DNA from: a virus
Reading direction: 5' to 3' (one strand)
DNA: 35,777 nt
Virus record (IMG/VR): IMGVR_UViG_3300029707_000012
Made by a program: the position numbers and the translations under genes. The notes under the pieces were generated by a model that saw nothing but the letters and a program-made list of their open reading frames with translations, was not told the origin of the DNA and did no database searches. Positions 1 through 10,281 of this stretch are shown piece by piece. Position 1 is the first letter of the stretch. Every line of letters begins with the position of its first letter.

Positions 1-99
1 GCCACCGGATGGACTGGGACGGAAATACCCTGACGCACACCTTCCGCGTCATCAAAGGCACCGACCGCACGGCCGGCATTCACCGCGTCGCATTTGTTG
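1..99. repeat. Terminal overlap, copy 1 (identical to 35679-35777)
   Basis: Base-by-base comparison: gccaccggatggactgggacgg...gcgtcgcatttgttg occurs at both ends. The match is exact for 99 nt and stops at the window edge. Confidence 0.97.
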
Positions 100-569
100 A
101 AGAGCAGGGGACATGTTCCGACCTTGTCATCAGTAAAGACGTGAGCACGTTTAAAAATGTCGCTTATGTGAAATACAAGCTGACCGACGAAACTGAGCCG
201 GTCGCGGTCGTTGGAAGCGCCTCTGGCGACGAGCGCTTCGAGCGTTGGTTCGACAGCTCAATCTCGCAGGAATCGGACGGCACCGCCGACGACGCTGCCA
301 AATCAGCAAAGTCTTTCGGCAATATGGAGCTTGGGAAGTATATCAAGCGATCCAGCTTTGACGTTGTCATCGACCCCTCCGAGCTCGGCATCCGCTATGA
401 CCTCGGCGACGTCGTGTTGTGCATTTCCGTCCGCTTCGGCGTGTCATTCGCCGCTCGCATCACGGGGTTAAAGTACACCCTCGACCGCACCGGCGAGAAA
501 ACGCAGATCATCCTCGGCGACCCAATCCTTGACGCATTAAGTGAGGAGAAACTAAATGGCAAATATTAA
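1..569 (+). CDS. Tail-tip/baseplate protein (Siphovirus Gp37-like), C-terminal part of the gene that starts at 35198
   Basis: The frame is open from base 1 (codons at 3, 6, 9...). Residues MDWDGNTLTHTFRVIKGTDRTAG are the same codons as 35687-35777. The gene lies directly after the distal tail protein, and the joined product is 349 aa. The family name is recalled from memory, not searched. Confidence 0.7.
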   Translation, partial: HRMDWDGNTLTHTFRVIKGTDRTAGIHRVAFVEEQGTCSDLVISKDVSTFKNVAYVKYKLTDETEPVAVVGSASGDERFERWFDSSISQESDGTADDAAKSAKSFGNMELGKYIKRSSFDVVIDPSELGIRYDLGDVVLCISVRFGVSFAARITGLKYTLDRTGEKTQIILGDPILDALSEEKLNGKY

Positions 570-1629
570 ATCTTTCCCGAACAACCGCGACGAATATGTC
601 GGCGCGGAATACGCCATGCGCTGGCTGCATGGCCGCACCTCCGGCGTGTTCGCCGCGAACAACAACGCCGCTGTTGCCGCCGTGCAGAACGCAATGGCGG
701 TCACGGTGTCAGACGGAATCGGCTGGATCTCCGATTCCGACGCAAACGGCGTTGTCTGGTGGAACGACGCCGAAAAAAACAACGGCGCAAAAATGCAGCT
801 CACAATTGACGCGGCGGACGGCGTTCTGAACCGTATTGACCGCGTGATCGTTGAGTGGAAAACCACCGACTACGCCGATCTACCGGAAATTAAAATCCTC
901 AAAGGCACACCGGCAAGCACGGCGGCCGCTCCTGCTCTCACAAACAACACCACGCAGCGGCAGTTGAGCCTCGCACAGATTCTCGTCGCCGCCGGTACGA
1001 CCTCCATCACCGCCTCCATGATTACAGACGAGAGGCAAAACCCGGACGTCTGCGGTCTTGTGACCGACACGTTGAGCATCGACACAAGCGTAATCAACGC
1101 GCAGTTCACGGAGCTGCTTGCGCAGCTTCGGGCGGCGATTGAACAGGCGAGCGGCGGCATTATCCCGGACAACACAGTAACGCTGGCGAAGTTGGCATCT
1201 GACGCAAAGTATTGGAATGAGCTTCCGCGAACAAACACAAGTTCCGACGCAACAAGCAATTATGTCGTTTCGAGCTGGGGACACGTTTTCAACTGGGTAT
1301 ACGGCAGCAATCAGTCTTTCATGTTCGATTTGAACGAGTTTAACCGTATTACGGATGACTTCTGGGAGACGGTCATCTTTGCCAACAATCCTTTTACGCT
1401 GATTTTGCAGAATATGCCCGCTGTGATTGAAAGCAATAAGGGAACATCATCCGCGGCGGCTGAAATCAGAATCACTGTTCCGCAAAACAAGTGGATCAAG
1501 CTGAAAAAGATTTCGAATGTTGCGCTCATTGTGACCGGCAACTATGACACACGCATGATCTATGCCGGAACGACGGAGCCGTCCGCCGAGCTCGGCGTGG
1601 ACGGCGATGAATATCTCATGTATTCCTAA
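556..1629 (+). CDS. Tail fibre / receptor-binding protein candidate (357 aa)
   Basis: A GAGGAG RBS lies 7 nt upstream of the ATG. The ORF overlaps the upstream tail gene by 14 nt and sits between the tail tip and the lysis cassette. No catalytic motif was recognised. Confidence 0.6.
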   Translation: MANIKSFPNNRDEYVGAEYAMRWLHGRTSGVFAANNNAAVAAVQNAMAVTVSDGIGWISDSDANGVVWWNDAEKNNGAKMQLTIDAADGVLNRIDRVIVEWKTTDYADLPEIKILKGTPASTAAAPALTNNTTQRQLSLAQILVAAGTTSITASMITDERQNPDVCGLVTDTLSIDTSVINAQFTELLAQLRAAIEQASGGIIPDNTVTLAKLASDAKYWNELPRTNTSSDATSNYVVSSWGHVFNWVYGSNQSFMFDLNEFNRITDDFWETVIFANNPFTLILQNMPAVIESNKGTSSAAAEIRITVPQNKWIKLKKISNVALIVTGNYDTRMIYAGTTEPSAELGVDGDEYLMYS

Positions 1630-1641
1630 GGGGTGAGCGAA

Positions 1642-2148
1642 ATGGCATGGAGCACAACGGCGCCGGAGCTCCCAAGCGGCAGCGCTTGGGAGCAGGAAAA
1701 AAGCATTTCTGGTGTAGCAAACCATTGGAGCCTTTCCGGAAAGCTGTACATTGCTCGCCTGAACGGCAGACAGTTCGCGGTTAAGGCAGAGCTGACGAGC
1801 GGCAACGGCAGCTACGGCACTTATTACCCGCCGGAGAAATGGAAGCTCCGGTGTGACATCGGCGGCGTTACCGGAACGGAGGACACGTCCTTTGGCGTAT
1901 CCAAGGGAACGACAACATTCTACTTCGTCGGTGAAGCCGGCGAGGGCGTCACAATCACCGCGAATGTCGGAGGCGTGGACGCCCCGGTCGCCGTTCAAAC
2001 CGCGACATTTACTGCCCCCGCGCTGCTCGGCTTGACAGTTTTTTTAAAGGTCGGCGGTGTATGGAGACCAGCGCAGGTCAAGGTCAAGATCGGCGGCGTC
2101 TGGAGGGACGCCGTGGCAAAAATCAAGGTCGGAGGGACATGGAAATGA
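1642..2148 (+). CDS. Fibre-associated protein with C-terminal 13-aa K(V/I)GG(V/T)W(R/K) repeats (168 aa)
   Basis: The ATG at 1642 is preferred over the GTG at 1633 because AAGGGG lies 8 nt upstream. The C-terminus contains three 39-nt repeats. The stop overlaps the endolysin start (ATGA). Confidence 0.6.
   Translation: MAWSTTAPELPSGSAWEQEKSISGVANHWSLSGKLYIARLNGRQFAVKAELTSGNGSYGTYYPPEKWKLRCDIGGVTGTEDTSFGVSKGTTTFYFVGEAGEGVTITANVGGVDAPVAVQTATFTAPALLGLTVFLKVGGVWRPAQVKVKIGGVWRDAVAKIKVGGTWK
2047..2144 (+). repeat. Three in-frame 39-nt period repeats (aaggtcggcggtgtatggag / aagatcggcggcgtctggag / aaggtcggagggacatggaa)
   Basis: Repeat cores sit at 2047, 2086 and 2125. They encode KVGGVWR / KIGGVWR / KVGGTWK. 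Confidence 0.85.
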
Positions 2149-2906: not shown

Positions 2907-3293
2907 ATGGAAATCATAAAGGCAATTATCACCGCATGCGGCGGGGCTGCCGTTGCGGGCATCTTCTCGCTGATCCTCGCCAACCGTAAGAATAAAAGCG
3001 AGATCGTGAAGCGTTTGGACGCTCTCGACAGTAAGCTCGTAAAGCACATCGAGGACGACGCCGCGTGCCGAGCTGACGAGGCGCGAAGCCGCATCCTCCG
3101 CTTCGGTGATGAGGTGCGGCAGGGTGTTCTACACACCGCCGAGCATTGGGCGGACGTTCTTCGTGACGTTGACCGATACGAGGACTACTGCTCCGGTCAC
3201 CCGTTGTATGAGAACAACCGCGCTGCAAACACCATCCAGCATCTTAACTGCGTCTACGCCGGGCATCTCAAGAAAAACGATTTTTTGAAGTAA
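2907..3293 (+). CDS. Membrane-anchored protein in the lysis cassette (single N-terminal TM, 128 aa)
   Basis: An AGGAGA RBS is present. The N-terminus IITACGGAAVAGIFSLILA is hydrophobic and the C-terminal domain is soluble. The gene lies between the endolysin and the holin. Confidence 0.6.
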   Translation: MEIIKAIITACGGAAVAGIFSLILANRKNKSEIVKRLDALDSKLVKHIEDDAACRADEARSRILRFGDEVRQGVLHTAEHWADVLRDVDRYEDYCSGHPLYENNRAANTIQHLNCVYAGHLKKNDFLK

Positions 3294-3305: not shown

Positions 3306-3626
3306 ATGAACGAGATTATCACTACCTACGGCATGGAAATCATCAAGTACATCATCCTCGCCATCTGCGGAATTGCCGCGTCTTACGCCGCGAAGCAGTA
3401 CGAAAAGTACGTCAACACTGATACCAAGCGCAAGGTAGCGGCAACTACCGTTGCGTACATTGAACAGGTTTATAAGGATATCCACGGCAGCGAGAAACTG
3501 TCCCGCGCCATGGCTGTCGCTGCCTCCATACTCGAACAGAAGGGCATCAAAACCACGGAGGACGAGCTTAAGGTGTTGCTTGAGGCCGCCGTTAAGGAAA
3601 TGAACGATAAGTTCAAAGCCGCCTGA
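3306..3626 (+). CDS. Holin, LL-H-like (106 aa)
   Basis: An AAGGAG RBS is present. The protein has an N-terminal TM (IIKYIILAICGIAASYAA) and a long charged helical tail. Its size and layout match the LL-H holin family, and it lies next to the endolysin. Confidence 0.7.
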   Translation: MNEIITTYGMEIIKYIILAICGIAASYAAKQYEKYVNTDTKRKVAATTVAYIEQVYKDIHGSEKLSRAMAVAASILEQKGIKTTEDELKVLLEAAVKEMNDKFKAA

Positions 3627-3663: not shown

Positions 3664-3816
3664 ATGAAAGAATCCGTAAAAACATTCTGCCGCATCAATG
3701 GCGTCGAGGCGTCTGAAAGCCTCGCAGAGACACTTTTTGAAGCATACATGGAGAGTGTAGCCAATGACGACAGAGAGCCTCCTACGGAGTTTAACAACGC
3801 CGGGGACAAAAAATAA
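3664..3816 (+). CDS. Possible small acidic protein (50 aa)
   Basis: An ATG-to-TAA ORF absent from the track because it is under 60 aa. It fills an otherwise empty 137-bp gap. The RBS is weak and the last 53 nt overlap the next gene in another frame. Confidence 0.3.
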   Translation: MKESVKTFCRINGVEASESLAETLFEAYMESVANDDREPPTEFNNAGDKK

Positions 3817-4027
3817 GCTGCAATTCCCGCGCGAGCTGCGCGAACAGTTTGAGCGGGACTGCGGCTTTACCGACGAGGAACTAAAAATCTTCCGCCTGCG
3901 GGCAAAGGGCATGAGTGTTTTGCAAATCTCCTTCGCCATGCAGACGGAAACGGAACTATACGGCACAGAGAAAGTCGAGCGCCGTATACGGGCGATAAAG
4001 GACAAGATCGCCGCTGCAATCGAATGA
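3764..4027 (+). CDS. Small HTH protein, sigma-70 region-4/LuxR-like (87 aa)
   Basis: GGAGAG lies 8 nt upstream. The motif TDEELKIFRLRAKGMSVLQISFAM resembles a region-4-type HTH. A terminator follows the gene. Confidence 0.55.
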   Translation: MTTESLLRSLTTPGTKNKLQFPRELREQFERDCGFTDEELKIFRLRAKGMSVLQISFAMQTETELYGTEKVERRIRAIKDKIAAAIE

Positions 4028-4047: not shown

Positions 4048-4080
4048 GAGGGCTAACCGATGGGTTGGCCCTCTTTTTTT
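4048..4080 (+). terminator. Rho-independent terminator
   Basis: The hairpin is gagggc-t-aacc-gatg-ggtt-g-gccctc, followed by T7. Confidence 0.75.
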
Positions 4081-4112
4081 ATGCGAAAATTTTGGTAGTG
4101 GGAGGCGACCGT

Positions 4113-4481
4113 ATGCAATATTTCAACCCGAATCCGGCTGGCAAGGCCGTGGGCGATTGCGTGATCCGCGCGATTGCTAAGGCGACCGGCGACAGCTGGG
4201 GCAAGGTGTATATGGATCTGGCGGCGACTGGGCACGAGCTGTCCGACATGCCGTCAGCCAATGCGGTCTGGGGCGCGTATCTCCGCCGTCGTGGATTTGC
4301 GCGCTCCGCTCTCCCCGATTACGACGGTTATACCGTCCGGCAATTTGCCGCCGAGCACCCCCGCGGCTCCTACATCCTCGCCTTAAGCGGCCACGTCGTG
4401 GCGGTCGTGGACGGGGAGTATTTTGACGCGTGGGATTCCGGCAACGAAATACCGATCTACGTTTGGGAGGAAAAACGATGA
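4113..4481 (+). CDS. Small predicted papain-fold Cys-His-Asp protein (122 aa)
   Basis: A GGGAGG RBS precedes ATG 4113; the track start at 4065 lies inside the terminator. The ordered motifs GDCVIRA ... SGHVVAVVDG ... DAWDSG fit a thiol-hydrolase triad order. Confidence 0.5.
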   Translation: MQYFNPNPAGKAVGDCVIRAIAKATGDSWGKVYMDLAATGHELSDMPSANAVWGAYLRRRGFARSALPDYDGYTVRQFAAEHPRGSYILALSGHVVAVVDGEYFDAWDSGNEIPIYVWEEKR

Positions 4482-4858
4482 ACTATCCGCCGTATTACCA
4501 GCCGAACTATCAGCCCTACGCCCCGCCGATGATGGATCAGCTCGCGCAGCTCCGCGCGCAGCAGCCCGCCCCGAACCAGATGATCTGGGTGCAGGGCGAA
4601 GCCGCCGCCAAGTCCTACCTTGTCGCGGCGGGAAACACCGTCCCGCTGTGGGACAGCGAAAACATGTGCATCTATGTCAAGTCCGTTGACGCTTCGGGCG
4701 TCCCCTCCATGCGCATCCTCGACTACACCGAGCGCACCAAACCCGCACCGGCGCAGCAGACACCGGAATACGTCACCCGTGCGGAATTTGAAGCGTTCGC
4801 GGCGCAGTTCGCGCCGAAGAAAACCGCAAAGAAAGCGGAGGTGACCGAAAATGAGTAA
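4478..4858 (+). CDS. Hypothetical protein with a Pro/Gln/Tyr-rich N-terminus (126 aa)
   Basis: The start forms an ATGA overlap with the upstream stop, and a GGAGG RBS is present. The product reads MNYPPYYQPNYQPYAPP followed by a globular core (MIWVQGEAAAKSYLV...). Confidence 0.6.
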   Translation: MNYPPYYQPNYQPYAPPMMDQLAQLRAQQPAPNQMIWVQGEAAAKSYLVAAGNTVPLWDSENMCIYVKSVDASGVPSMRILDYTERTKPAPAQQTPEYVTRAEFEAFAAQFAPKKTAKKAEVTENE

Positions 4859-5057
4859 CCCCCTGTTTCAGGTATTCGGCGGCGGGCAGAACAACCAGTT
4901 CGCCCAGCTTGTCCAGCAGTTCCAGCAATTCCGAAACACCTTTCGCGGCGATCCGCAGCAGGAGGTGCAGAAGCTGTTGCAAAGCGGCAAAATCTCCCAG
5001 CAGCAGCTAAACCAACTGCAAAGTGCCGCACAGCAATTCCAGGCGCTCTTACGTTGA
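4851..5057 (+). CDS. Gln-rich small protein (68 aa)
   Basis: GGAGGTG lies 8 nt upstream, and the ORF overlaps the upstream gene by 8 nt. The sequence is Q-rich and helical (QLVQQFQQFRNTF...QQLNQLQSAAQQFQ). Confidence 0.6.
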   Translation: MSNPLFQVFGGGQNNQFAQLVQQFQQFRNTFRGDPQQEVQKLLQSGKISQQQLNQLQSAAQQFQALLR

Positions 5058-5059
5058 AT

Positions 5060-5087
5060 TTATCCGGCCGGATAAAAAATATTTTTT
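5060..5087 (+). terminator. Weak terminator-like palindrome
   Basis: ttatccgg/ccggataa is a perfect 16-bp palindrome, followed by aaaatatttttt. Confidence 0.35.
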
Positions 5088-5104
5088 GAAAGGAAAATTG
5101 AACA

Positions 5105-5806
5105 ATGTCTCTTACCGACGGTGGTATCCAGCCCACCATGCCCGTAACTCCTACCGGTGTGAATAACGGCGGCTGGGGCGGCTTCGGCGGCGACGGATGG
5201 TGGATCATCCTCTTCTTCATTGTCCTCTTCGGCTGGGGCGGCAACGGCTTCGGCGGTAGTCGTGGCGGTGTGACCGATGGTTACATCCTCACCTCCGACT
5301 TCGCCAACGTCGAGCGCAAGCTCGACGGCGTGAACAACGGCCTCTGCGATGGTTTCTTCGCGCAGGCGCAGCTCATCAACGGCGTGCAGCAGAACCTGAG
5401 CAACGGCTTTATGTCCGCCGAACTCTCCCGCGCGAACCAGCAGTCCGCCCTCATGGCGCAGCTCTTCCAGATGCAGATGCAGTCGCAGGAGTGCTGCTGC
5501 GAGAATCGCGCCGCCGTTGCGCAGGTGCGCTATGACATGGCAACGCAGGGCTGCGAAACCCGCAACACCGTGCAGAACGCCGCGCGCGACATCATCGACA
5601 ACGCCAACGGAAATAGCAAGGCCATCCTTGATTTCCTTGTGCAGAGCAAGATGCGCGATCTCGAAAGCGAGAACCAGTCCCTCAAGCTCGCAGCCTCCCA
5701 GGCGGCACAGAACAGCTACCTTGTCTCTGCCCTCCGTCCGTCGCCCATCCCGGCGTATCAGGTCGCAAATCCGTATTGCTGCAGCTACAACTGCGGCGTC
5801 GCCTAA
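5105..5806 (+). CDS. Membrane protein with a Gly/Trp-rich N-terminus, one TM and a Cys-rich coiled C-terminal domain (233 aa)
   Basis: A GAAAGGA RBS is present. The N-terminus reads NNGGWGGFGGDGWWIILFFIVLFGWGGNGFGGSRGG. The protein has 8 Cys, including ECCCEN and a terminal PYCCSYNCGVA. A strong terminator follows. Confidence 0.65.
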   Translation: MSLTDGGIQPTMPVTPTGVNNGGWGGFGGDGWWIILFFIVLFGWGGNGFGGSRGGVTDGYILTSDFANVERKLDGVNNGLCDGFFAQAQLINGVQQNLSNGFMSAELSRANQQSALMAQLFQMQMQSQECCCENRAAVAQVRYDMATQGCETRNTVQNAARDIIDNANGNSKAILDFLVQSKMRDLESENQSLKLAASQAAQNSYLVSALRPSPIPAYQVANPYCCSYNCGVA

Positions 5807-5868
5807 ACTCAATACCGAGAGCTTGCCCCCAGCGGCATGGTCGGCCTAATGCCGACGCTTAACACACG

Positions 5869-5900
5869 GCGGCGGGGCATTTTACCCCGCCGCATTTTTT
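5869..5900 (+). terminator. Rho-independent terminator
   Basis: A 9-bp GC stem (gcggcgggg-catttta-ccccgccgc) is followed by aTTTTTT. Confidence 0.85.
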
Positions 5901-5915
5901 GAAAGGAGAAACCCA

Positions 5916-6338
5916 ATGGCTGAATTTACTAACGCCACGACGGCGCTTGTCGCCGCCGGGCAGAACGTCCCCCTCACCGAAACAGCAGTTGCCGGGAATT
6001 GCGGTATCGTCCACCGCGAGGGCGCGGGAATCGTCACCCTCCGAGGGCTGACGAATCAGTGCCGCGCTCGGTACAAAGTGTCCTTCGGCGCAAACATCGC
6101 CATCCCCACCGGCGGAACGGTCGAAGCAATTTCCCTTGCTATCGCCGTTAACGGCGAGCCGCTTGTTAGCGCCACCGCCGTCGTCACCCCCGTAGCCGTC
6201 GGTGATTACGGAAATATCTTTGTTTCCGCGAACGTCGATGTTCCCCGCGGCTGCTGCCTGACTGTCGCGGCGGAGAACATCAGCGGACAGGCCATCAACG
6301 TTGCCAACGCCAACATGATCGTTGAGCGCGTGGCGTGA
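5916..6338 (+). CDS. Small beta-rich protein, C1q/TNF-like (BclA C-terminal-domain-like) candidate (140 aa)
   Basis: A GAAAGGAG RBS is present. The sequence alternates hydrophobic beta-strand patterns (IVTLRGL, YKVSFGANIAI, ISLAIAVNGEPL, IFVSANVDV, LTVAAENISG, NANMIVERV) in the way exosporium BclA-CTD-type jelly rolls do. This is a motif-level judgement only. Confidence 0.4.
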   Translation: MAEFTNATTALVAAGQNVPLTETAVAGNCGIVHREGAGIVTLRGLTNQCRARYKVSFGANIAIPTGGTVEAISLAIAVNGEPLVSATAVVTPVAVGDYGNIFVSANVDVPRGCCLTVAAENISGQAINVANANMIVERVA

Positions 6339-6351
6339 AAGGAGAAAAACC

Positions 6352-6753
6352 ATGAGTGAATATGCTATGAAGTCCATCCGTGAAAAGCTCTGCCGCGAGC
6401 TGGACGAAGTGGCCCGAAAGCCCGACCTCGGCGCGGGCGATCTCGATATCCTCCACAAAATCACCGATACTGTCAAGAACATTGACAAAATCGAAATGCT
6501 CGAAGACGGGGACTATTCCCGCGCCGGTGAGTGGGAGGCGGATATGCGCGGCACCTACGGACGCGGCAGCAGCTACGCCCGCCGCGGTACGCACTACGTC
6601 CGCGGACACTACAGCCGCGACGGCGAGGGCGACCGTTACAGCGAACGGTACAGCCGCGACGGTATGCGCGAGCATATCGAGGGCATGATGCGCGACGCGC
6701 AGGACGACCGCACCCGCGAGGCGCTGCGCCGCTGCCTCGACGATCTCGGCTGA
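6352..6753 (+). CDS. Hypothetical protein with an Arg/Tyr/Gly/Ser-rich low-complexity centre (133 aa)
   Basis: GAAAGGAG lies 6-7 nt upstream of ATG 6352. A helical N-terminus is followed by RGTYGRGSSYARRGTHYVRGHYSRDGEGDRYSERYSRDG. Confidence 0.6.
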   Translation: MSEYAMKSIREKLCRELDEVARKPDLGAGDLDILHKITDTVKNIDKIEMLEDGDYSRAGEWEADMRGTYGRGSSYARRGTHYVRGHYSRDGEGDRYSERYSRDGMREHIEGMMRDAQDDRTREALRRCLDDLG

Positions 6754-6754
6754 C

Positions 6755-7078
6755 ATGCTGGACGCACTCGAGATTCGCAAAGAGATAGCGAGGCTCGAGT
6801 ATGAAGAGTCGAGCTATCCCAATTATGCCAAGCTCGCCACGCTCTACACCATCCGCGCCGAAATGAACAAGGAGAACGAGCCGCAGAACGCCGCGCCACG
6901 AGCGCAGCCCATCCCGGCCTATTCCGGCGCAGCCTACGGAAACAGCGAATTTCTCCGCACCGTCTCGGACAAAGAGCCGCGAGACGCATGGCGGGTGATG
7001 GATGAGCTGATGGAGAGCCTGAGCGTGATGCAGCCAAAGACCTACGCCGCGGTCATGAACAAACTAAACGACCTATAA
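6755..7078 (+). CDS. Hypothetical protein (107 aa)
   Basis: The ORF starts 1 nt after the upstream stop, and a hairpin follows it. No motif was recognised. Confidence 0.55.
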   Translation: MLDALEIRKEIARLEYEESSYPNYAKLATLYTIRAEMNKENEPQNAAPRAQPIPAYSGAAYGNSEFLRTVSDKEPRDAWRVMDELMESLSVMQPKTYAAVMNKLNDL

Positions 7079-7085
7079 GCAAAGA

Positions 7086-7116
7086 AGAAGCGCCTGGAAT
7101 CAACCCCGGCGCTTCT
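7086..7116. terminator. Hairpin between convergent genes (possibly a bidirectional terminator)
   Basis: agaagcgcc-13 nt-ggcgcttct forms a 9-bp stem. The flanking T tracts are only weak on both strands. Confidence 0.45.
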
Positions 7117-7123
7117 CTAAATT

Positions 7124-7173
7124 GTTTAGCCATATTATATATTAACTGGTGTTAAGGTGCTATATAACTAAAC
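7124..7173. other. Candidate attP for the serine integrase (50-bp imperfect dyad)
   Basis: The dyad is GTTTAG-nn-ATAT-n6-TTAAC-tggt-GTTAA-n6-ATAT-nn-CTAAAC, with 16 of 25 arm positions symmetric. It lies in an AT-rich spacer abutting the integrase stop codon. Confidence 0.45.
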
Positions 7174-8460
7174 AAGATCAAAAAAGATATCGCCGTTGTT
7201 TGCGATGACAATTCGGCGGATGAAGCGATTCCACGCTTCCTTTTTCCCGCTTGGCGGCAGCTTGTCGTAGGCGTCGATCAATGACATGACAAGCGCTTTG
7301 TCTATGGGCTTCGGCTCGGGCGGTACGTTCAGTTTTTCCTTTAATGCTGTATATTCCATTTCGTATTTCTCGCGGTTGATTAGATCAGCGAGATATAGGT
7401 CTGTCAGCTTGTCCATTTTCCGTTTGATCGCCGCCGTGTCAACCGGCGGTTTTATTTTTCCCGCCTTTAGCTTTGCGTTGTGCGCTTGAACTTCAATCGG
7501 CAGCTTCATCAATAGGTACGCCTCAAGCTCTGCCTCGTTGATTCTTTTTTTGTGGCTGCAAAGACCGATTTCATAGTTTTTGCATCGATAATAAAAGTAA
7601 TCTGTCCCCCGTTGCCGTGTGGAATGCGTCACGAGCCGGTGGCCGCATTCGGCGCACCAGACAAGGCCGGAGAACAGCCAAGTGTGCCGCGATCCGTTGT
7701 TGCGAATGCTTCTTGCCGTCAGCATCCGCTGAACAAGGGCAAAATCCTCCGGCGGGATCAGCGCGTCGCAGACTTTTATTCCGTTGTTAAGGCCGATATA
7801 TCTCTCGTTGCTCAATGCGCCTTTTATATGATGGTTTGCTCGCATTATTCCAAACTCGGAAACGAGCATCTTTTTGACGTGGTTAACGCTTCCCGTTGCG
7901 ATGTAATCCTCAAACATTCGCCTCGCAATGTGCGCCGTTTCCTCATCGACGCAAAGGCGGCTCTCGACGGCCTTTAACCCGATGGGCGTTTTACCCGCTG
8001 GGCAAAGGCCAAGCTCCCGCTTGTGCTGCATGATCCGCTTAACGCGCTCTGACGTTCTGTCTGCCTCGTCCTGCGCGACGGACAGCATTATATTGACCTT
8101 TAACCGTCCGGCGGCGGTGGCGGTCTCGTAGTCTTCATATGTCGCCTGCCATACAACACCGTGCGCGTCTAGGACTTCCTGCGCCTTGTAAAACTCTCCG
8201 ATGTTGCGGAACCAACGGTCTAATTTCGTGAACGCTACGAGATCGATTTGCCCCGCTTCCACATCGGATAGAAGCCGCTGCAATTCAGGCCGCTTTGACA
8301 CGCTTTTCCTGCCGCTTACCCCGGCATCGACGTAATAATCAACGACCTTATGCTTGTTTTCTTCTGCCCATTTTTTCAGGCTTTCTTTCTGGTCATCGAC
8401 GGAAAGGCCGTGAACGGCTTGTTCTTCCGTGGAGACGCGGACATAAAGTGCAACTCTCAT
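7168..8460 (-). CDS. int: Large serine recombinase (integrase), 430 aa
   Basis: The N-terminus is a resolvase catalytic domain (MRVALYVRVSTEEQ...). It is followed by a recombinase domain, a Cys zinc ribbon (CAECGHRL...YYRCKNYEIGLC) and a C-terminal coiled coil. Confidence 0.93.
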   Translation of the reverse strand: MRVALYVRVSTEEQAVHGLSVDDQKESLKKWAEENKHKVVDYYVDAGVSGRKSVSKRPELQRLLSDVEAGQIDLVAFTKLDRWFRNIGEFYKAQEVLDAHGVVWQATYEDYETATAAGRLKVNIMLSVAQDEADRTSERVKRIMQHKRELGLCPAGKTPIGLKAVESRLCVDEETAHIARRMFEDYIATGSVNHVKKMLVSEFGIMRANHHIKGALSNERYIGLNNGIKVCDALIPPEDFALVQRMLTARSIRNNGSRHTWLFSGLVWCAECGHRLVTHSTRQRGTDYFYYRCKNYEIGLCSHKKRINEAELEAYLLMKLPIEVQAHNAKLKAGKIKPPVDTAAIKRKMDKLTDLYLADLINREKYEMEYTALKEKLNVPPEPKPIDKALVMSLIDAYDKLPPSGKKEAWNRFIRRIVIANNGDIFFDLV

Positions 8461-9032
8461 TTCTTTTTCCCCTTGTAAATGCTTTTGAAGGCGTAAATGA
8501 TGGTTGCGACGGAGGCGTTCAGTATCAGGGCGAGGACGCCCGCAAAAATGCTTGTCCCAGCCGAACGGAAAATACCGGCGGTCTCTACCTGGATGTCAAA
8601 TATGACGTACCATACAACTGCGCACAAAAGGATACTGCATACGCCTATGAGCATATAAATTGTCCTTGTGTGGGTTTCCCCCTGCTTTCTCAGCCCTGCG
8701 TTCATTTCTTGCAGATGCTGTACTTCGCCGGATAACCGCACGTTCTCCAATTCCAGATCATGGACATGCTGTGTGTCCGGCTGTTCATCCAGACCGACAA
8801 GCTCATTCAGCGATAGATTCAATACCTTGCAAGTGGCAGCGGCATAAAAAAGGAGCGGGTGCTTGACCCGCCCTGCATTCGTGTCGCAGATGTTGTTGTA
8901 TGGAACACCTGACAGGTCTGACAATTCTTGCAGGGTGAAGCCGCTGGCATTTTTCGCTTTGCGAATTTTTGTTGTATACTCATCTAAGTAAGGCTGCAAG
9001 TCTGTGAGCGCTGACACTCTCTCCATCTCCAT
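8457..9032 (-). CDS. Membrane-anchored XRE-family HTH protein (191 aa)
   Basis: The protein has an N-terminal HTH (FTLQELSDLSGVPYNNICDTNAGR), a coiled linker and two C-terminal TM segments (IYMLIGVCSILLCAVVWYVIF; IFAGVLALILNASVATIIYAF). Its stop overlaps the integrase ATG (ATGA). Confidence 0.75.
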   Translation of the reverse strand: MEMERVSALTDLQPYLDEYTTKIRKAKNASGFTLQELSDLSGVPYNNICDTNAGRVKHPLLFYAAATCKVLNLSLNELVGLDEQPDTQHVHDLELENVRLSGEVQHLQEMNAGLRKQGETHTRTIYMLIGVCSILLCAVVWYVIFDIQVETAGIFRSAGTSIFAGVLALILNASVATIIYAFKSIYKGKKK

Positions 9033-9211: not shown

Positions 9212-10171
9212 TCACGCAAAATAATCGTCGACCGTTCTCCCGTCAACGGAGCTTAAAAACGCGGTGTTGTGATCTACATCGCTAACAAGGATCGCGCCGA
9301 CATGCACCTCATCGCCGCAGAAAAACTGCGCAAGGCTGATTGCATTTTCTGTCATGGAGTTCAGCGCGGAAACCGTATCGCTCCAATTGCTCGGCTTCGT
9401 TCCGGCTTTCTTCGATTCTCTGATTTTCGCATCAAATCCGTCGTTCTCAATGAGCATCACAATCAAATTTTGATCTTCTTTGATTGTGTATGTAACGTTC
9501 GGCAGATTCTTTTTCCATGTCACCTGGATAAACTGCGCCGCGGCTTCCAGCGTCTCCGGTGTGCATTTGCCGAGATTGGATTCTTCGGACGCTTCCTCTT
9601 CCGGCTGCTGTGCAATGTCGAAATCCTTTGAGCCGATCTCTTCCCATCTGTACAATGCAACGAGCGTGACCGGCGTTTCCTCGTCGTCCAGCTCGTAGGT
9701 CATCACGTCCTCAACGGTTCCGCCCTTTTTGATTTTTGCGAATCCGGTATCGTGATAGGCGCTGTTCTCTTGCGATCCGACATTAAGCTCGTTCAGGAAG
9801 TTCGGGTCGTTGTCCTGATAGGCGCGGAATGTGTCAATCCATTTCCCGGAAGCGCTCACGTCCCAGTCGGACAGGTTTGTCACGTTGAATTTGAAGCAGA
9901 TGAGCGGAACGTCGCCATATTTGTTGTATTCCGACCCTACCTCTAAGATTTCATACCCAATGATCTCAATGCGGGCTTCATCGTCCTCGTACACCGTGCC
10001 GTCAAACGTTGCGGCAGGCTTCGGTTCTTCCGTCGGCTCAACTGTCGGCTCCGCAGTCGGCGCGGCGGTCGGTTCCGGTGTTGTCTGCGTCTCCGGCGCT
10101 TCTCCTCCACACGCGCAAAGGGCAAAAACGAGCGCAAAAACCAAGGCAAGGGCAAGCAGTTTCTTTCTCAT
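9212..10171 (-). CDS. Secreted lipoprotein with a DUF5067/DUF4352-like beta domain (319 aa)
   Basis: The ATG at 10171 has AGGAGA 9 nt upstream; the track's TTG at 10180 is less likely. The signal peptide plus lipobox reads MRKKLLALALVFALVFALCAC-GG and is followed by a Pro/Thr/Glu linker. The domain family is recalled from IEIIGYEILEVGSEYNKYGDVPLICFKFNVTNLS. Confidence 0.8.
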   Translation of the reverse strand: MRKKLLALALVFALVFALCACGGEAPETQTTPEPTAAPTAEPTVEPTEEPKPAATFDGTVYEDDEARIEIIGYEILEVGSEYNKYGDVPLICFKFNVTNLSDWDVSASGKWIDTFRAYQDNDPNFLNELNVGSQENSAYHDTGFAKIKKGGTVEDVMTYELDDEETPVTLVALYRWEEIGSKDFDIAQQPEEEASEESNLGKCTPETLEAAAQFIQVTWKKNLPNVTYTIKEDQNLIVMLIENDGFDAKIRESKKAGTKPSNWSDTVSALNSMTENAISLAQFFCGDEVHVGAILVSDVDHNTAFLSSVDGRTVDDYFA

Positions 10172-10281
10172 AACATCCAATCTCCTATTAAATTTTTGTT
10201 GTGGATATGTTTAGAATAACTCTTTTTATCGGTTGAATCAAGTTTAAATTTGTCGAAAGGCAATAAAATAAGGAGGGAAAA

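Follow-up and report, generated by a model that had tools for sequence, protein, structure and literature searches.

The viral record IMGVR_UViG_3300029707_000012, a stretch of 35,777 nucleotides (nt) analyzed here over its full length (hereafter, the window), carries seven small plus-strand open reading frames (ORFs), O1 to O7 (4113-7078), between its lysis genes and its integrase gene. This arrangement raises the question whether the seven genes belong together and, if so, what purpose they serve. An initial annotation, made from the sequence alone, had located the ORFs correctly and had read them as a cassette in a typical moron position, divided by terminators into independently expressed units and possibly devoted to remodelling of the cell or spore surface by lysogenic conversion. 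The region proves to be one conserved, self-contained accessory operon of Clostridia siphophages, which travels as a block between phages with unrelated lysis, integration and head genes. The cassette as first delimited contained the seven genes and was one gene short, since a helix-turn-helix (HTH) gene located upstream of O1, p3764, also belongs to the module.

The conservation of the module was assessed starting from O5 and, reciprocally, from O4. A TBLASTN search of phage records located O4 and O5 next to each other in at least 12 records; Butyrivibrio phage Ceridwen, Dulem viruses 33 and 35 and contigs from the human gut share the complete gene order. A scan of one genome per prokaryotic species with an O5 profile returned 184 relatives; the best 80 of these, from which the taxonomy was taken, belong nearly all to metagenome-assembled genomes (MAGs) and isolates of gut or rumen Clostridia (Oscillospiraceae, Lachnospiraceae, Ruminococcus, Subdoligranulum, Agathobacter and others). 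Iterated hidden Markov models were applied to all ORFs of 87 O5-seeded genome or phage sources, and the gene families recovered, which are counted in Table 1, invariably displayed a constant order and strand. In the reciprocal test, IMG/VR was scanned with an O4 alignment. At least 580 contigs carry O4, and all 565 hits of the test lie on the same strand. Within a strict subset of 52 loci offering at least 2.5 kb on either side, O2 is present throughout (52), O1, O3, O5 and O6 in 49 loci each, O7 in 40 and the HTH gene in 39. A reduced form, HTH-O2-O4-O5, recurs among the 87 sources and the IMG/VR loci and constitutes the minimal core of the module. The families therefore co-occur in fixed order well beyond this phage, as had been supposed for a coherent set. 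The reading that O1 to O7 are unrelated morons and mere chance neighbours would agree with the small size of all products and with their lack of Pfam families; it is refuted by the fixed order and strand in more than 130 phage or prophage loci of gut and rumen Clostridia, by the unrelated flanks, by the reciprocal co-occurrence and by the shared cis elements, and keeps practically no probability.

The surroundings of the module are exchanged from one carrier to the next. The holin, endolysin and integrase families of the window recur in only 1-6 of the 87 sources and, because its portal, capsid and scaffold proteins have no relatives among the other loci, the module must be moving between unrelated backbones. 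Its upstream neighbours are endolysins or holins of several families, or Phage_min_cap2; downstream stand tyrosine or serine integrases, host genes or phage scaffold genes. Two insertion positions can be distinguished. The first follows the lysis genes and precedes the integrase or the end of the prophage. The second, found in at least 12 loci and belonging to a Lachnospiraceae-associated clade, is located between the portal/minor capsid (Phage_min_cap2) and the scaffold/major capsid genes, and in this head-cluster arrangement the HTH gene sits between O1 and O2. In the temperate Dulem virus 35, lysis genes and integrase are neighbours, yet the module is located in the head cluster. The moron designation is therefore appropriate as far as this backbone-independent presence at two positions is concerned, and misleading in that the genes form one module rather than a loose set of morons. 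Every locus with identifiable flanks is a phage or a prophage.

Table 1. Features of the module and of its surroundings, with the occurrence of the gene families among relatives (positions refer to the window unless a locus is named)
Feature	Position	Strand	Remarks	O5-seeded sources	IMG/VR loci
GH25 endolysin	start 2061 or 2139, end 2897		upstream of the cassette		
LLH-type holin	3306-3626		Pfam E 1e-16; upstream of the cassette		
p3764, HTH gene	3764-4027	+	first gene of the module	47/87	56/80
Intrinsic terminator after p3764	4048-4073	+	11-pair stem then T7 run; second-best site of the scan		
T-run and extended -10-like box TTTTTTTATGCGAAAAT	4074-4090	+	candidate module promoter		
O1	4113-4481	+	122 amino acids (aa)	58/87	
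O2	4478-4858	+		74/87	79/80
O3	4851-5057	+	68 aa	57/87	
Perfect 18-bp palindrome TTTATCCGGCCGGATAAA, then A/T-rich box	5059-5076	.	candidate operator and promoter region of O4		
O4	5105-5806	+		83/87	
Three-hairpin RNA	5824-5900	+	directly after the O4 stop codon		
RNA hairpin H1	5824-5837	+			
RNA, conserved AUG	5837-5839	+			
RNA hairpin H2	5841-5855	+			
RNA hairpin H3	5869-5893	+	followed by U-run		
O5	5916-6338	+	140 aa	86/87	
O6	6352-6753	+		64/87	71/80
O7	6755-7078	+	optional last gene of the module; last in every case	31/87	59/80
Hairpin AGAAGCGCC..GGCGCTTCT	7086-7116	.	between O7 and integrase; sequence reading		
Serine integrase	7168-8460	-	downstream of the cassette		
Inserted genes in relatives	L002 6410-6961 (-); L051 6164-6841 (-); L082 5921-6712 (-); L071 3731-4381 (+)				
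Inserted genes in relatives	L039 6825-7940 (+); L035 7226-7939 (+); L040 7138-7962 (+)				
Optional extra ORF in relatives	L017 7802-8008; L019 7793-7999; L034 4485-4709; L083 7769-7999		between RNA element and O5		

The matches of O1 to O6 to PHROG families, all listed as 'unknown function', together with ratios of nonsynonymous to synonymous substitution rates (dN/dS) of 0.08-0.32 against relatives for all seven genes (dS saturated), argue that O1 to O7 are real genes under purifying selection. Strong ribosome-binding sites had been announced for the entire set. Sites of the GGAG/AAGGA type can indeed be read in front of six of the seven ORFs; O7 is translationally coupled to O6 (TGAcATG) in place of a site of its own.

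The organization of the cis elements departs from the one first proposed. Three intrinsic terminators had been placed in the region; those after p3764 and after O4 are the two best hits of the terminator scan, and the third, at about 5060-5087, is not called and corresponds to the palindrome preceding O4. The terminator behind p3764 is directly followed by a T-run and an extended -10-like box, a combination which would fit a unit provided with its own promoter. The motif T(4+)..TGnnAnAAT occurs within 170 nt after p3764 in 14 of 47 loci versus 0.9% of random windows, an enrichment of about 30-fold, and the extended -10-like motif is nearly identical in distant loci. Ahead of O4, a perfect palindrome of at least 10 nt is present in 77 of 125 distinct regions (62%) versus 6.9% of random windows, a nine-fold difference. 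The sequence of the palindrome varies between loci and its symmetry is kept, extending through the centre (GGCC, GCGC or TGCA) in 72 of 112 cases. The mismatches of imperfect copies display no excess of G-U and, in view of this missing bias and of the symmetry through the centre, the palindrome looks like a DNA-level site rather than an RNA hairpin. A terminator function of the O3-O4 hairpin was rejected on the same two grounds.

The segment between O4 and O5 contains a structured RNA. With a covariance model (R1) constructed from 36 sequences, a single copy per locus is detected in 60 of the 87 sources and in 75 of the 80 independent loci of IMG/VR. The copies are invariably located on the plus strand right after O4, and remain there even when 0.2-1.3 kb of foreign genes stand before O5. 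In the alignment fitted to R1, compensatory changes are observed in 22 of 22 pairs, G-U pairs are frequent and 87.8% of the cells are paired, versus 41-58% with slid partners; none of 500 shuffles reaches the observed values. RNAalifold, applied to a MAFFT alignment, independently recovers H2 and H3, and folding of the window copy gives all three hairpins (z = -3.4). Rfam holds no family for the element and returned only a chance match on the opposite strand, with 19 bits versus a gathering score of 97. A small ORF starting at the conserved AUG (5837) was considered and rejected, as the loop lengths vary out of frame between loci. Hairpin H3 is the intrinsic terminator mentioned above, and the ribosome-binding site of O5 lies directly 3' of its U-run. 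Since no room is left for a promoter between the two, O5 to O7 are predicted to depend on terminator read-through and would not form the independent unit initially postulated. In 17 loci, including Ceridwen, the RNA is absent and O4 directly abuts O5, from which a co-expression of both genes can be deduced; in two more, they are separated by 1-2 nt. On this comparative sequence evidence, the three-hairpin RNA and the palindrome represent new and well-supported regulatory motifs. The terminator scan made no call at the hairpin located between O7 and the integrase gene, where the plus strand has no T-run; this hairpin probably marks the end of the unit and/or the terminator of the convergent integrase gene.

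The O3|O4 and RNA|O5 junctions are hot spots for insertion in relatives. Among the inserted genes are HNH-type endonuclease-like, C5 cytosine methyltransferase-like and 3'-phosphoadenosine-5'-phosphosulfate (PAPS)-reductase-like ones, as judged only from motifs and one record annotation. An optional extra ORF of 68-76 aa, helical and apparently homologous between the loci carrying it, is found between the RNA element and O5 in several relatives and is absent from the window.

The first gene of the module, p3764, belongs to a family of small stand-alone HTH proteins of about 70-90 aa, of the GerE/LuxR or sigma-70 region 4 type. Over 44 family members, Pfam reports Sigma70_r4 in 20 and GerE in 11; the window copy alone has no Pfam match. 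The family profile, built by iteration and very divergent (mean column identity 16%), finds GerE (1fse, E 1.8e-8) as its best natural match in the PDB, followed by NarL, SdiA and RhlR. The GerE protein of Bacillus subtilis is a stand-alone LuxR-type HTH which regulates coat genes, and proteins of the GerE/LuxR type bind palindromes as dimers. We know of no link between the p3764 family and sigma-K.

The products of the seven ORFs have the unusual compositions first described: eight Cys in O4, four in O5, and Pro/Gln/Tyr-rich, Gln-rich and Arg/Tyr/Gly/Ser-rich proteins among the others. The description of O1 (phrog_3754, E 6e-29) as a Cys-His-Asp mini-protein was also borne out. Residues N5, C16, H94 and D105 are invariant across 121 sequences, and the AlphaFold2 model (predicted local distance difference test, pLDDT, of 94.6) displays a papain-like fold. 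The structure matches of this model in the PDB are weak (Josephin-2, with a probability of 0.91 and a template modelling (TM) score of 0.53, staphopain and MCF protease; E 0.06-0.5), and a strong resemblance is seen to uncharacterised BFVD proteins of phages whose hosts belong to many phyla; one of these proteins bears the name of a C39 peptidase domain. According to this model, O1 has a minimal papain-like Cys-His-Asp fold with an upstream oxyanion-type residue and is a predicted peptidase. Neither the window protein nor any of 55 relatives has a match in Pfam or NCBIfam, and the PDB sequence search gave none. The BFVD relatives (E 1e-12 to 1e-4) come from phages of Pseudomonas, Sphingomonas, Acidovorax, Sinorhizobium, Cellulophaga, Nodularia and Enterococcus. 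Judged from the models, the O1 fold is a widespread phage mini-peptidase fold which is found beyond the module.

The O5 protein (phrog_20016, E 4e-55) gave an all-beta AlphaFold2 model with a pLDDT of 93.6 from a 124-sequence alignment. Its top 17 Foldseek matches in the PDB are F-BclA, ExsF, ExsFA, BxpB and BclA (F-BclA C-terminal domain (CTD) 9h38, ExsF 9h3d, ExsFA 7r1m, BxpB 8d02, BclA 1wck and 3tyj), with E 1e-6 to 1e-5, TM 0.69-0.77 and probability 1.0. At lower ranks follow EDA, 4-1BBL and C1q and then the phage tail knobs 9eul, 9k09 and 8ke9. The C1q/BclA-CTD-like nature initially assigned to O5 is in agreement with these results, the model being that of a stand-alone TNF/C1q-like jelly roll of the ExsF/BclA-CTD type. 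At the sequence level, O5 scores 17.7 bits against the Pfam family BclA_C (PF18573), below the gathering cut-off of 38; matches to BclA_C with E < 0.01 occur in 6 of 77 O5 relatives, the best at 4.4e-7, and searches of the PDB by sequence and of NCBIfam gave no match. The window protein used as query yields a family of 620 clusters at 50% identity, and the members of the best 150 of these are all 75-196 aa long and free of fusions. Residues R34, C113, C114 and N121 are invariant and H33 nearly so. O5 thus shares the fold of the BclA_C/ExsF-type proteins and differs from them in sequence threshold, architecture and context; it is probably a distant relative.

The resemblance to exosporium proteins bears directly on the spore-surface remodelling suggested by the initial annotation. 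Under this hypothesis, the products would be expressed in the mother cell of a lysogen and built into the coat or exosporium, O5 being the ExsF/BclA-type unit, O4 and O6 the Cys- and Tyr-rich cross-linkable parts and p3764 a GerE-like regulator. The top O5 structure matches are all exosporium or spore-appendage proteins, GerE is the best natural PDB match of the regulator profile, the products lack signal peptides as coat proteins do, many hosts belong to Clostridia lineages that include spore formers, and most carriers of the module are temperate. The distribution of the module speaks against it. Ceridwen, which has no integrase, carries the module intact; it was isolated on B. fibrisolvens and its growth has been seen only as lytic (PMC7372960). 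Extensive sporulation-gene loss is described for Butyrivibrio (bioRxiv 10.1101/2022.02.25.481979), so a spore-specific function cannot be general and the host lineage is not always a sporulating one. Carrier MAGs are also labelled Subdoligranulum, Agathobacter and Butyricicoccus. Among the loci with identifiable flanks, none is a chromosomal sporulation locus. Direct reading of the window likewise reveals no sigma-E- or sigma-K-type box (CATACA-T or CATA---TA) upstream of 5105 or 5916, and O5 has neither collagen repeats nor an exosporium leader nor an NCBIfam match. Remodelling of the spore or cell surface by lysogenic conversion is consequently not retained for loci found only in phages, one of them lytic, and the spore hypothesis appears unlikely.

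The lower-ranking Foldseek matches lead to another possibility, that of a virion accessory in which O4 would form a trimeric coiled-coil fibre capped by O5 as its TNF-like knob, in the manner of the Sf6 tail needle or the phi812 central spike, or in which O5 would decorate the capsid, the remaining products being assembly factors. Virion proteins are matched by O5 only secondarily, after the exosporium proteins, and phage-tail TNF-like knobs (9eul, 9k09 and 8ke9) are nevertheless among the hits. The presence of the module between head-morphogenesis and scaffold genes in at least 12 loci, its maintenance in a lytic phage and the homing-endonuclease insertions at its junctions, which are typical of conserved phage genes, point in the same direction. 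The portal, capsid and tail genes of the carriers are however not detectably related, and a matching docking site would be needed in each of them. Identities of 41-92% among O5 proteins are far above those usual for receptor-binding proteins, the module owns a regulator, terminators and a putative attenuator, and O4 combines a membrane-type anchor with about 12 Cys. A virion role is accordingly regarded as improbable.

The O4 protein (phrog_16490, E 2e-39) has no Pfam family. An alignment of 65 homologues displays an acidic N-terminal tail nearly devoid of Lys and Arg, one hydrophobic segment only, flanked by Gly and Trp, a helical coiled-coil region, a variable number of GF-containing repeats, an invariant CCC and a conserved P.P.PAY.V.NP motif followed by a Cys/Gly-rich C-terminal tail. 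The family averages 11.6 Cys per protein. Influenza HA2 was obtained as a possible relative (PDB profile E of about 0.02 only) and rejected, the similarity being taken as compositional (a Gly-rich hydrophobic segment, then a coiled coil). The other products are of low complexity or helical. O2 (phrog_21718, E 1e-26) consists of a P/Q/Y-rich N-terminus, a conserved domain some 55 aa long (WVQGE..Y.V.P..V.L.D...Y.K..D..G.P..R..D..ER) and a C-terminal helix, and has no relative in Pfam or the PDB. O3 (phrog_22984, E 5e-23) is Q/N-rich and helical with two conserved motifs (M.NPLF..LGG and GDP..EV..LL.SG..SQ.Q.NQ) and no Pfam family. O6 (phrog_28802, E of about 4e-7) carries an R/G/S/Y-rich disordered stretch between two conserved acidic helices and has no relative in Pfam or the PDB. 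O7 is helical and has conserved motifs, with dN/dS of 0.13-0.15 and no relative in Pfam or in the PDB sequence search. Taken over all products, searches of Pfam, NCBIfam and PADLOC yielded no hits other than chance ones or ones below threshold. Because no signal peptide or membrane segment is found in any product other than O4, display of the others on the surface of the vegetative cell is unlikely.

A membrane protein encoded next to lysis genes could also act as the effector of an accessory that tunes holin-endolysin lysis (its timing, the disruption of the membrane or the release through an envelope layer). The module directly follows holin or endolysin genes of several families in most loci and is present in a lytic phage, and the Gly-rich hydrophobic segment of O4 has a weak HA2-like composition. 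The head-cluster loci, where lysis and integrase genes abut, are in contrast far from the lysis genes; no match to a holin, spanin or lysis-regulator family was obtained, and 7-8 genes including a TNF-like trimer and low-complexity proteins would be foreign to any known lysis system. We therefore consider this role very unlikely.

The explanation that best accounts for the whole, to which a likelihood somewhat short of even is attributed, is that of a conserved mobile operon building a host-directed, membrane-anchored assembly. The main argument is the movement of the module between unrelated phage backbones, from which we infer that the target of its products is the host cell rather than the virion. 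With its single hydrophobic segment, O4 would tether the system to the cytoplasmic membrane. O5 would form an ExsF/BclA-like trimer docking a Pro-rich peptide as ExsF does, the candidates being the TMPVxP and PxPxPAYxVxNP motifs of O4 or the P/Q/Y-rich N-terminus of O2, and O1 would process one component. These steps, like those that follow, are proposed by analogy with the exosporium, where the clefts of the ExsF trimer take up Pro-rich leader peptides and the BclA leader is cut by a protease (PMC12357932). Together with the low-complexity proteins O2, O3 and O6, the Cys-rich O4 may build a cross-linked or condensed assembly on the membrane. A dimer of the HTH protein would gate O4 through the palindrome, and the RNA terminator, acting as an attenuator, would set or regulate the amount of O5 to O7 relative to O4. 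Protection or exclusion at the level of the cell envelope, directed at superinfection and competing phages during both lysogeny and lytic growth, is our leading guess as to the role of such an assembly.

A number of points weigh against this proposal, in which everything beyond anatomy and folds is inferred. Promoter assignments in the module are motif-based only, and the sigma-70 scan detected no plus-strand -35/-10 promoter between 4000 and 7100. The palindrome occurs only once in the window, with no second copy that would make up an operator pair. The topology of O4 is ambiguous, few charges being present on either side of its anchor. PADLOC returned no significant match for any of 10 proteins, and the head-cluster position in one clade leaves, together with the tail-knob hits of O5, room for a virion role. 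A bolder variant of the host-directed assembly would be a phage-borne toolkit of the spore-coat/exosporium type, comprising a GerE-like regulator, an ExsF/BclA-like trimer and self-assembling proteins rich in Cys or in Tyr and Arg, and building a cross-linked shell in vegetative, infected or lysogenic cells or around the progeny; it is considered quite improbable. If true, it would imply an 'armour' or occlusion-like layer without known phage counterpart, would tie the origin of exosporium nap proteins to phage genes and would make the three-hairpin RNA a new class of cis-regulator controlling stoichiometry.

Since the module is kept intact as its surroundings are exchanged, it must provide its carriers with a general advantage. 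Its carriers are phages of gut and rumen Clostridia, Oscillospiraceae and Lachnospiraceae among them, and for O1 and O5 alike, public protein data contain over 7,000 relatives. Identification of this advantage would annotate thousands of gut-virome genes together. The link between the fold of O5 and the exosporium, combined with a GerE-like regulator, also raises the question of an exchange of a self-assembly toolkit between phages and spores. Cultured carriers include Butyrivibrio phage Ceridwen and the Lachnospiraceae bacteria JLR.KK009 (L039) and 1XD21-87 (L038).

Several neighbouring genes of the window deserve mention. Between endolysin and holin, the 128-aa product of a plus-strand gene (2907-3293) matches phrog_37604 (E 1e-24) and has a hydrophobic segment at its N-terminus; relatives of this protein adjoin the module in four other loci (L012, L013, L072 and L086). 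On the far side of the module, next to the integrase, a minus-strand gene (8457-9032) encodes a 191-aa protein with an N-terminal HTH-like region and C-terminal hydrophobic segments, which may be a membrane-tethered regulator of the repressor type. Past both, in the lysogeny region, the 322-aa product of a further minus-strand gene (9212-10180) combines a lipoprotein-like signal peptide (MDVMRKKLLALALVFALVFALCACGG...) with a linker rich in Pro, Thr and Glu; as a candidate for superinfection exclusion or lysogenic conversion, it is more conventional than the cassette. Tail-type genes are found at both ends of the window (1-2148 and 32095-35777), among them tail/fibre-like ORFs (9-2148) and a 753-aa ORF (32095-34356) that is probably the tape measure; this placement suggests that the window is a phage genome which is more or less complete and circularly permuted. 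An O4 with 97% identity is carried by IMG/VR contigs of 29-38 kb (L088 and L089).

No description of the module or of its RNA element was found in the full-text literature, and comparison with known systems has to be made part by part. O1 resembles the minimal papain-fold peptidases of the Josephin/C39-like type in its fold and in the N..C..H..D arrangement, and differs from them by its length of only 122 aa, its position outside Pfam and its structural relatives in phages devoid of the rest of the module. Like GerE of Bacillus subtilis, p3764 is a stand-alone HTH; its profile matches 1fse and a LuxR-dimer-type palindrome precedes O4. Unlike for GerE, the window copy has no Pfam match and the family profile is very divergent. 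The RNA element is comparable to intrinsic-terminator attenuators and to cis-acting antitermination RNAs, of which HK022 put and EAR are examples, in that two small conserved hairpins precede a terminator inside an operon, on the transcribed strand. It departs from them in having no sequence or Rfam relation and no evident alternative pairing, and in being missing from the 17 abutting loci.

For O5, two groups of proteins come into consideration. Like ExsFA and BxpB, it is a stand-alone protein of the class of about 140-165 aa, without signal peptide and with the same jelly-roll fold, and its Cys-rich partner has a parallel in ExsY, the partner of ExsF. It differs from ExsF and BclA by a sequence identity of 11-17%, below the Pfam threshold, by the absence of collagen repeats and leader, and by H33-R34 and C113-C114, which are specific to its family. 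Unlike the exosporium proteins, it is encoded only by phages, including a lytic phage of a non-sporulating host. The second group comprises the TNF-like phage tail knobs, exemplified by the knob of the Sf6 tail needle, the phi812 central spike (9eul), the cyanophage A4 portal-tail complex (9k09) and the cyanophage A-1(L) short tail fibre (8ke9). O5 belongs to the same fold class, and O4 plus O5 recall their pairing of a coiled coil with a knob; the similarity of O5 to these knobs (E 4e-5 to 1.5e-4) is weaker than its similarity to the exosporium proteins. Tail knobs are moreover fused to the fibre and encoded among tail genes, whereas O5 is a separate small protein in a mobile, regulated operon.

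As a whole, the module is best compared to phage morons, the autonomous promoter-gene-terminator units inserted between phage genes in, for example, lambdoid phages. It shares with them a location between lysis genes and attachment site, an independence from the phage backbone, flanking terminators and a candidate promoter. Morons consist of one or two genes, whereas the module comprises 7-8 genes together with its own regulator and a putative internal attenuator. It is furthermore conserved across very divergent phages, possesses a second insertion site in the head cluster and is kept in a lytic phage.

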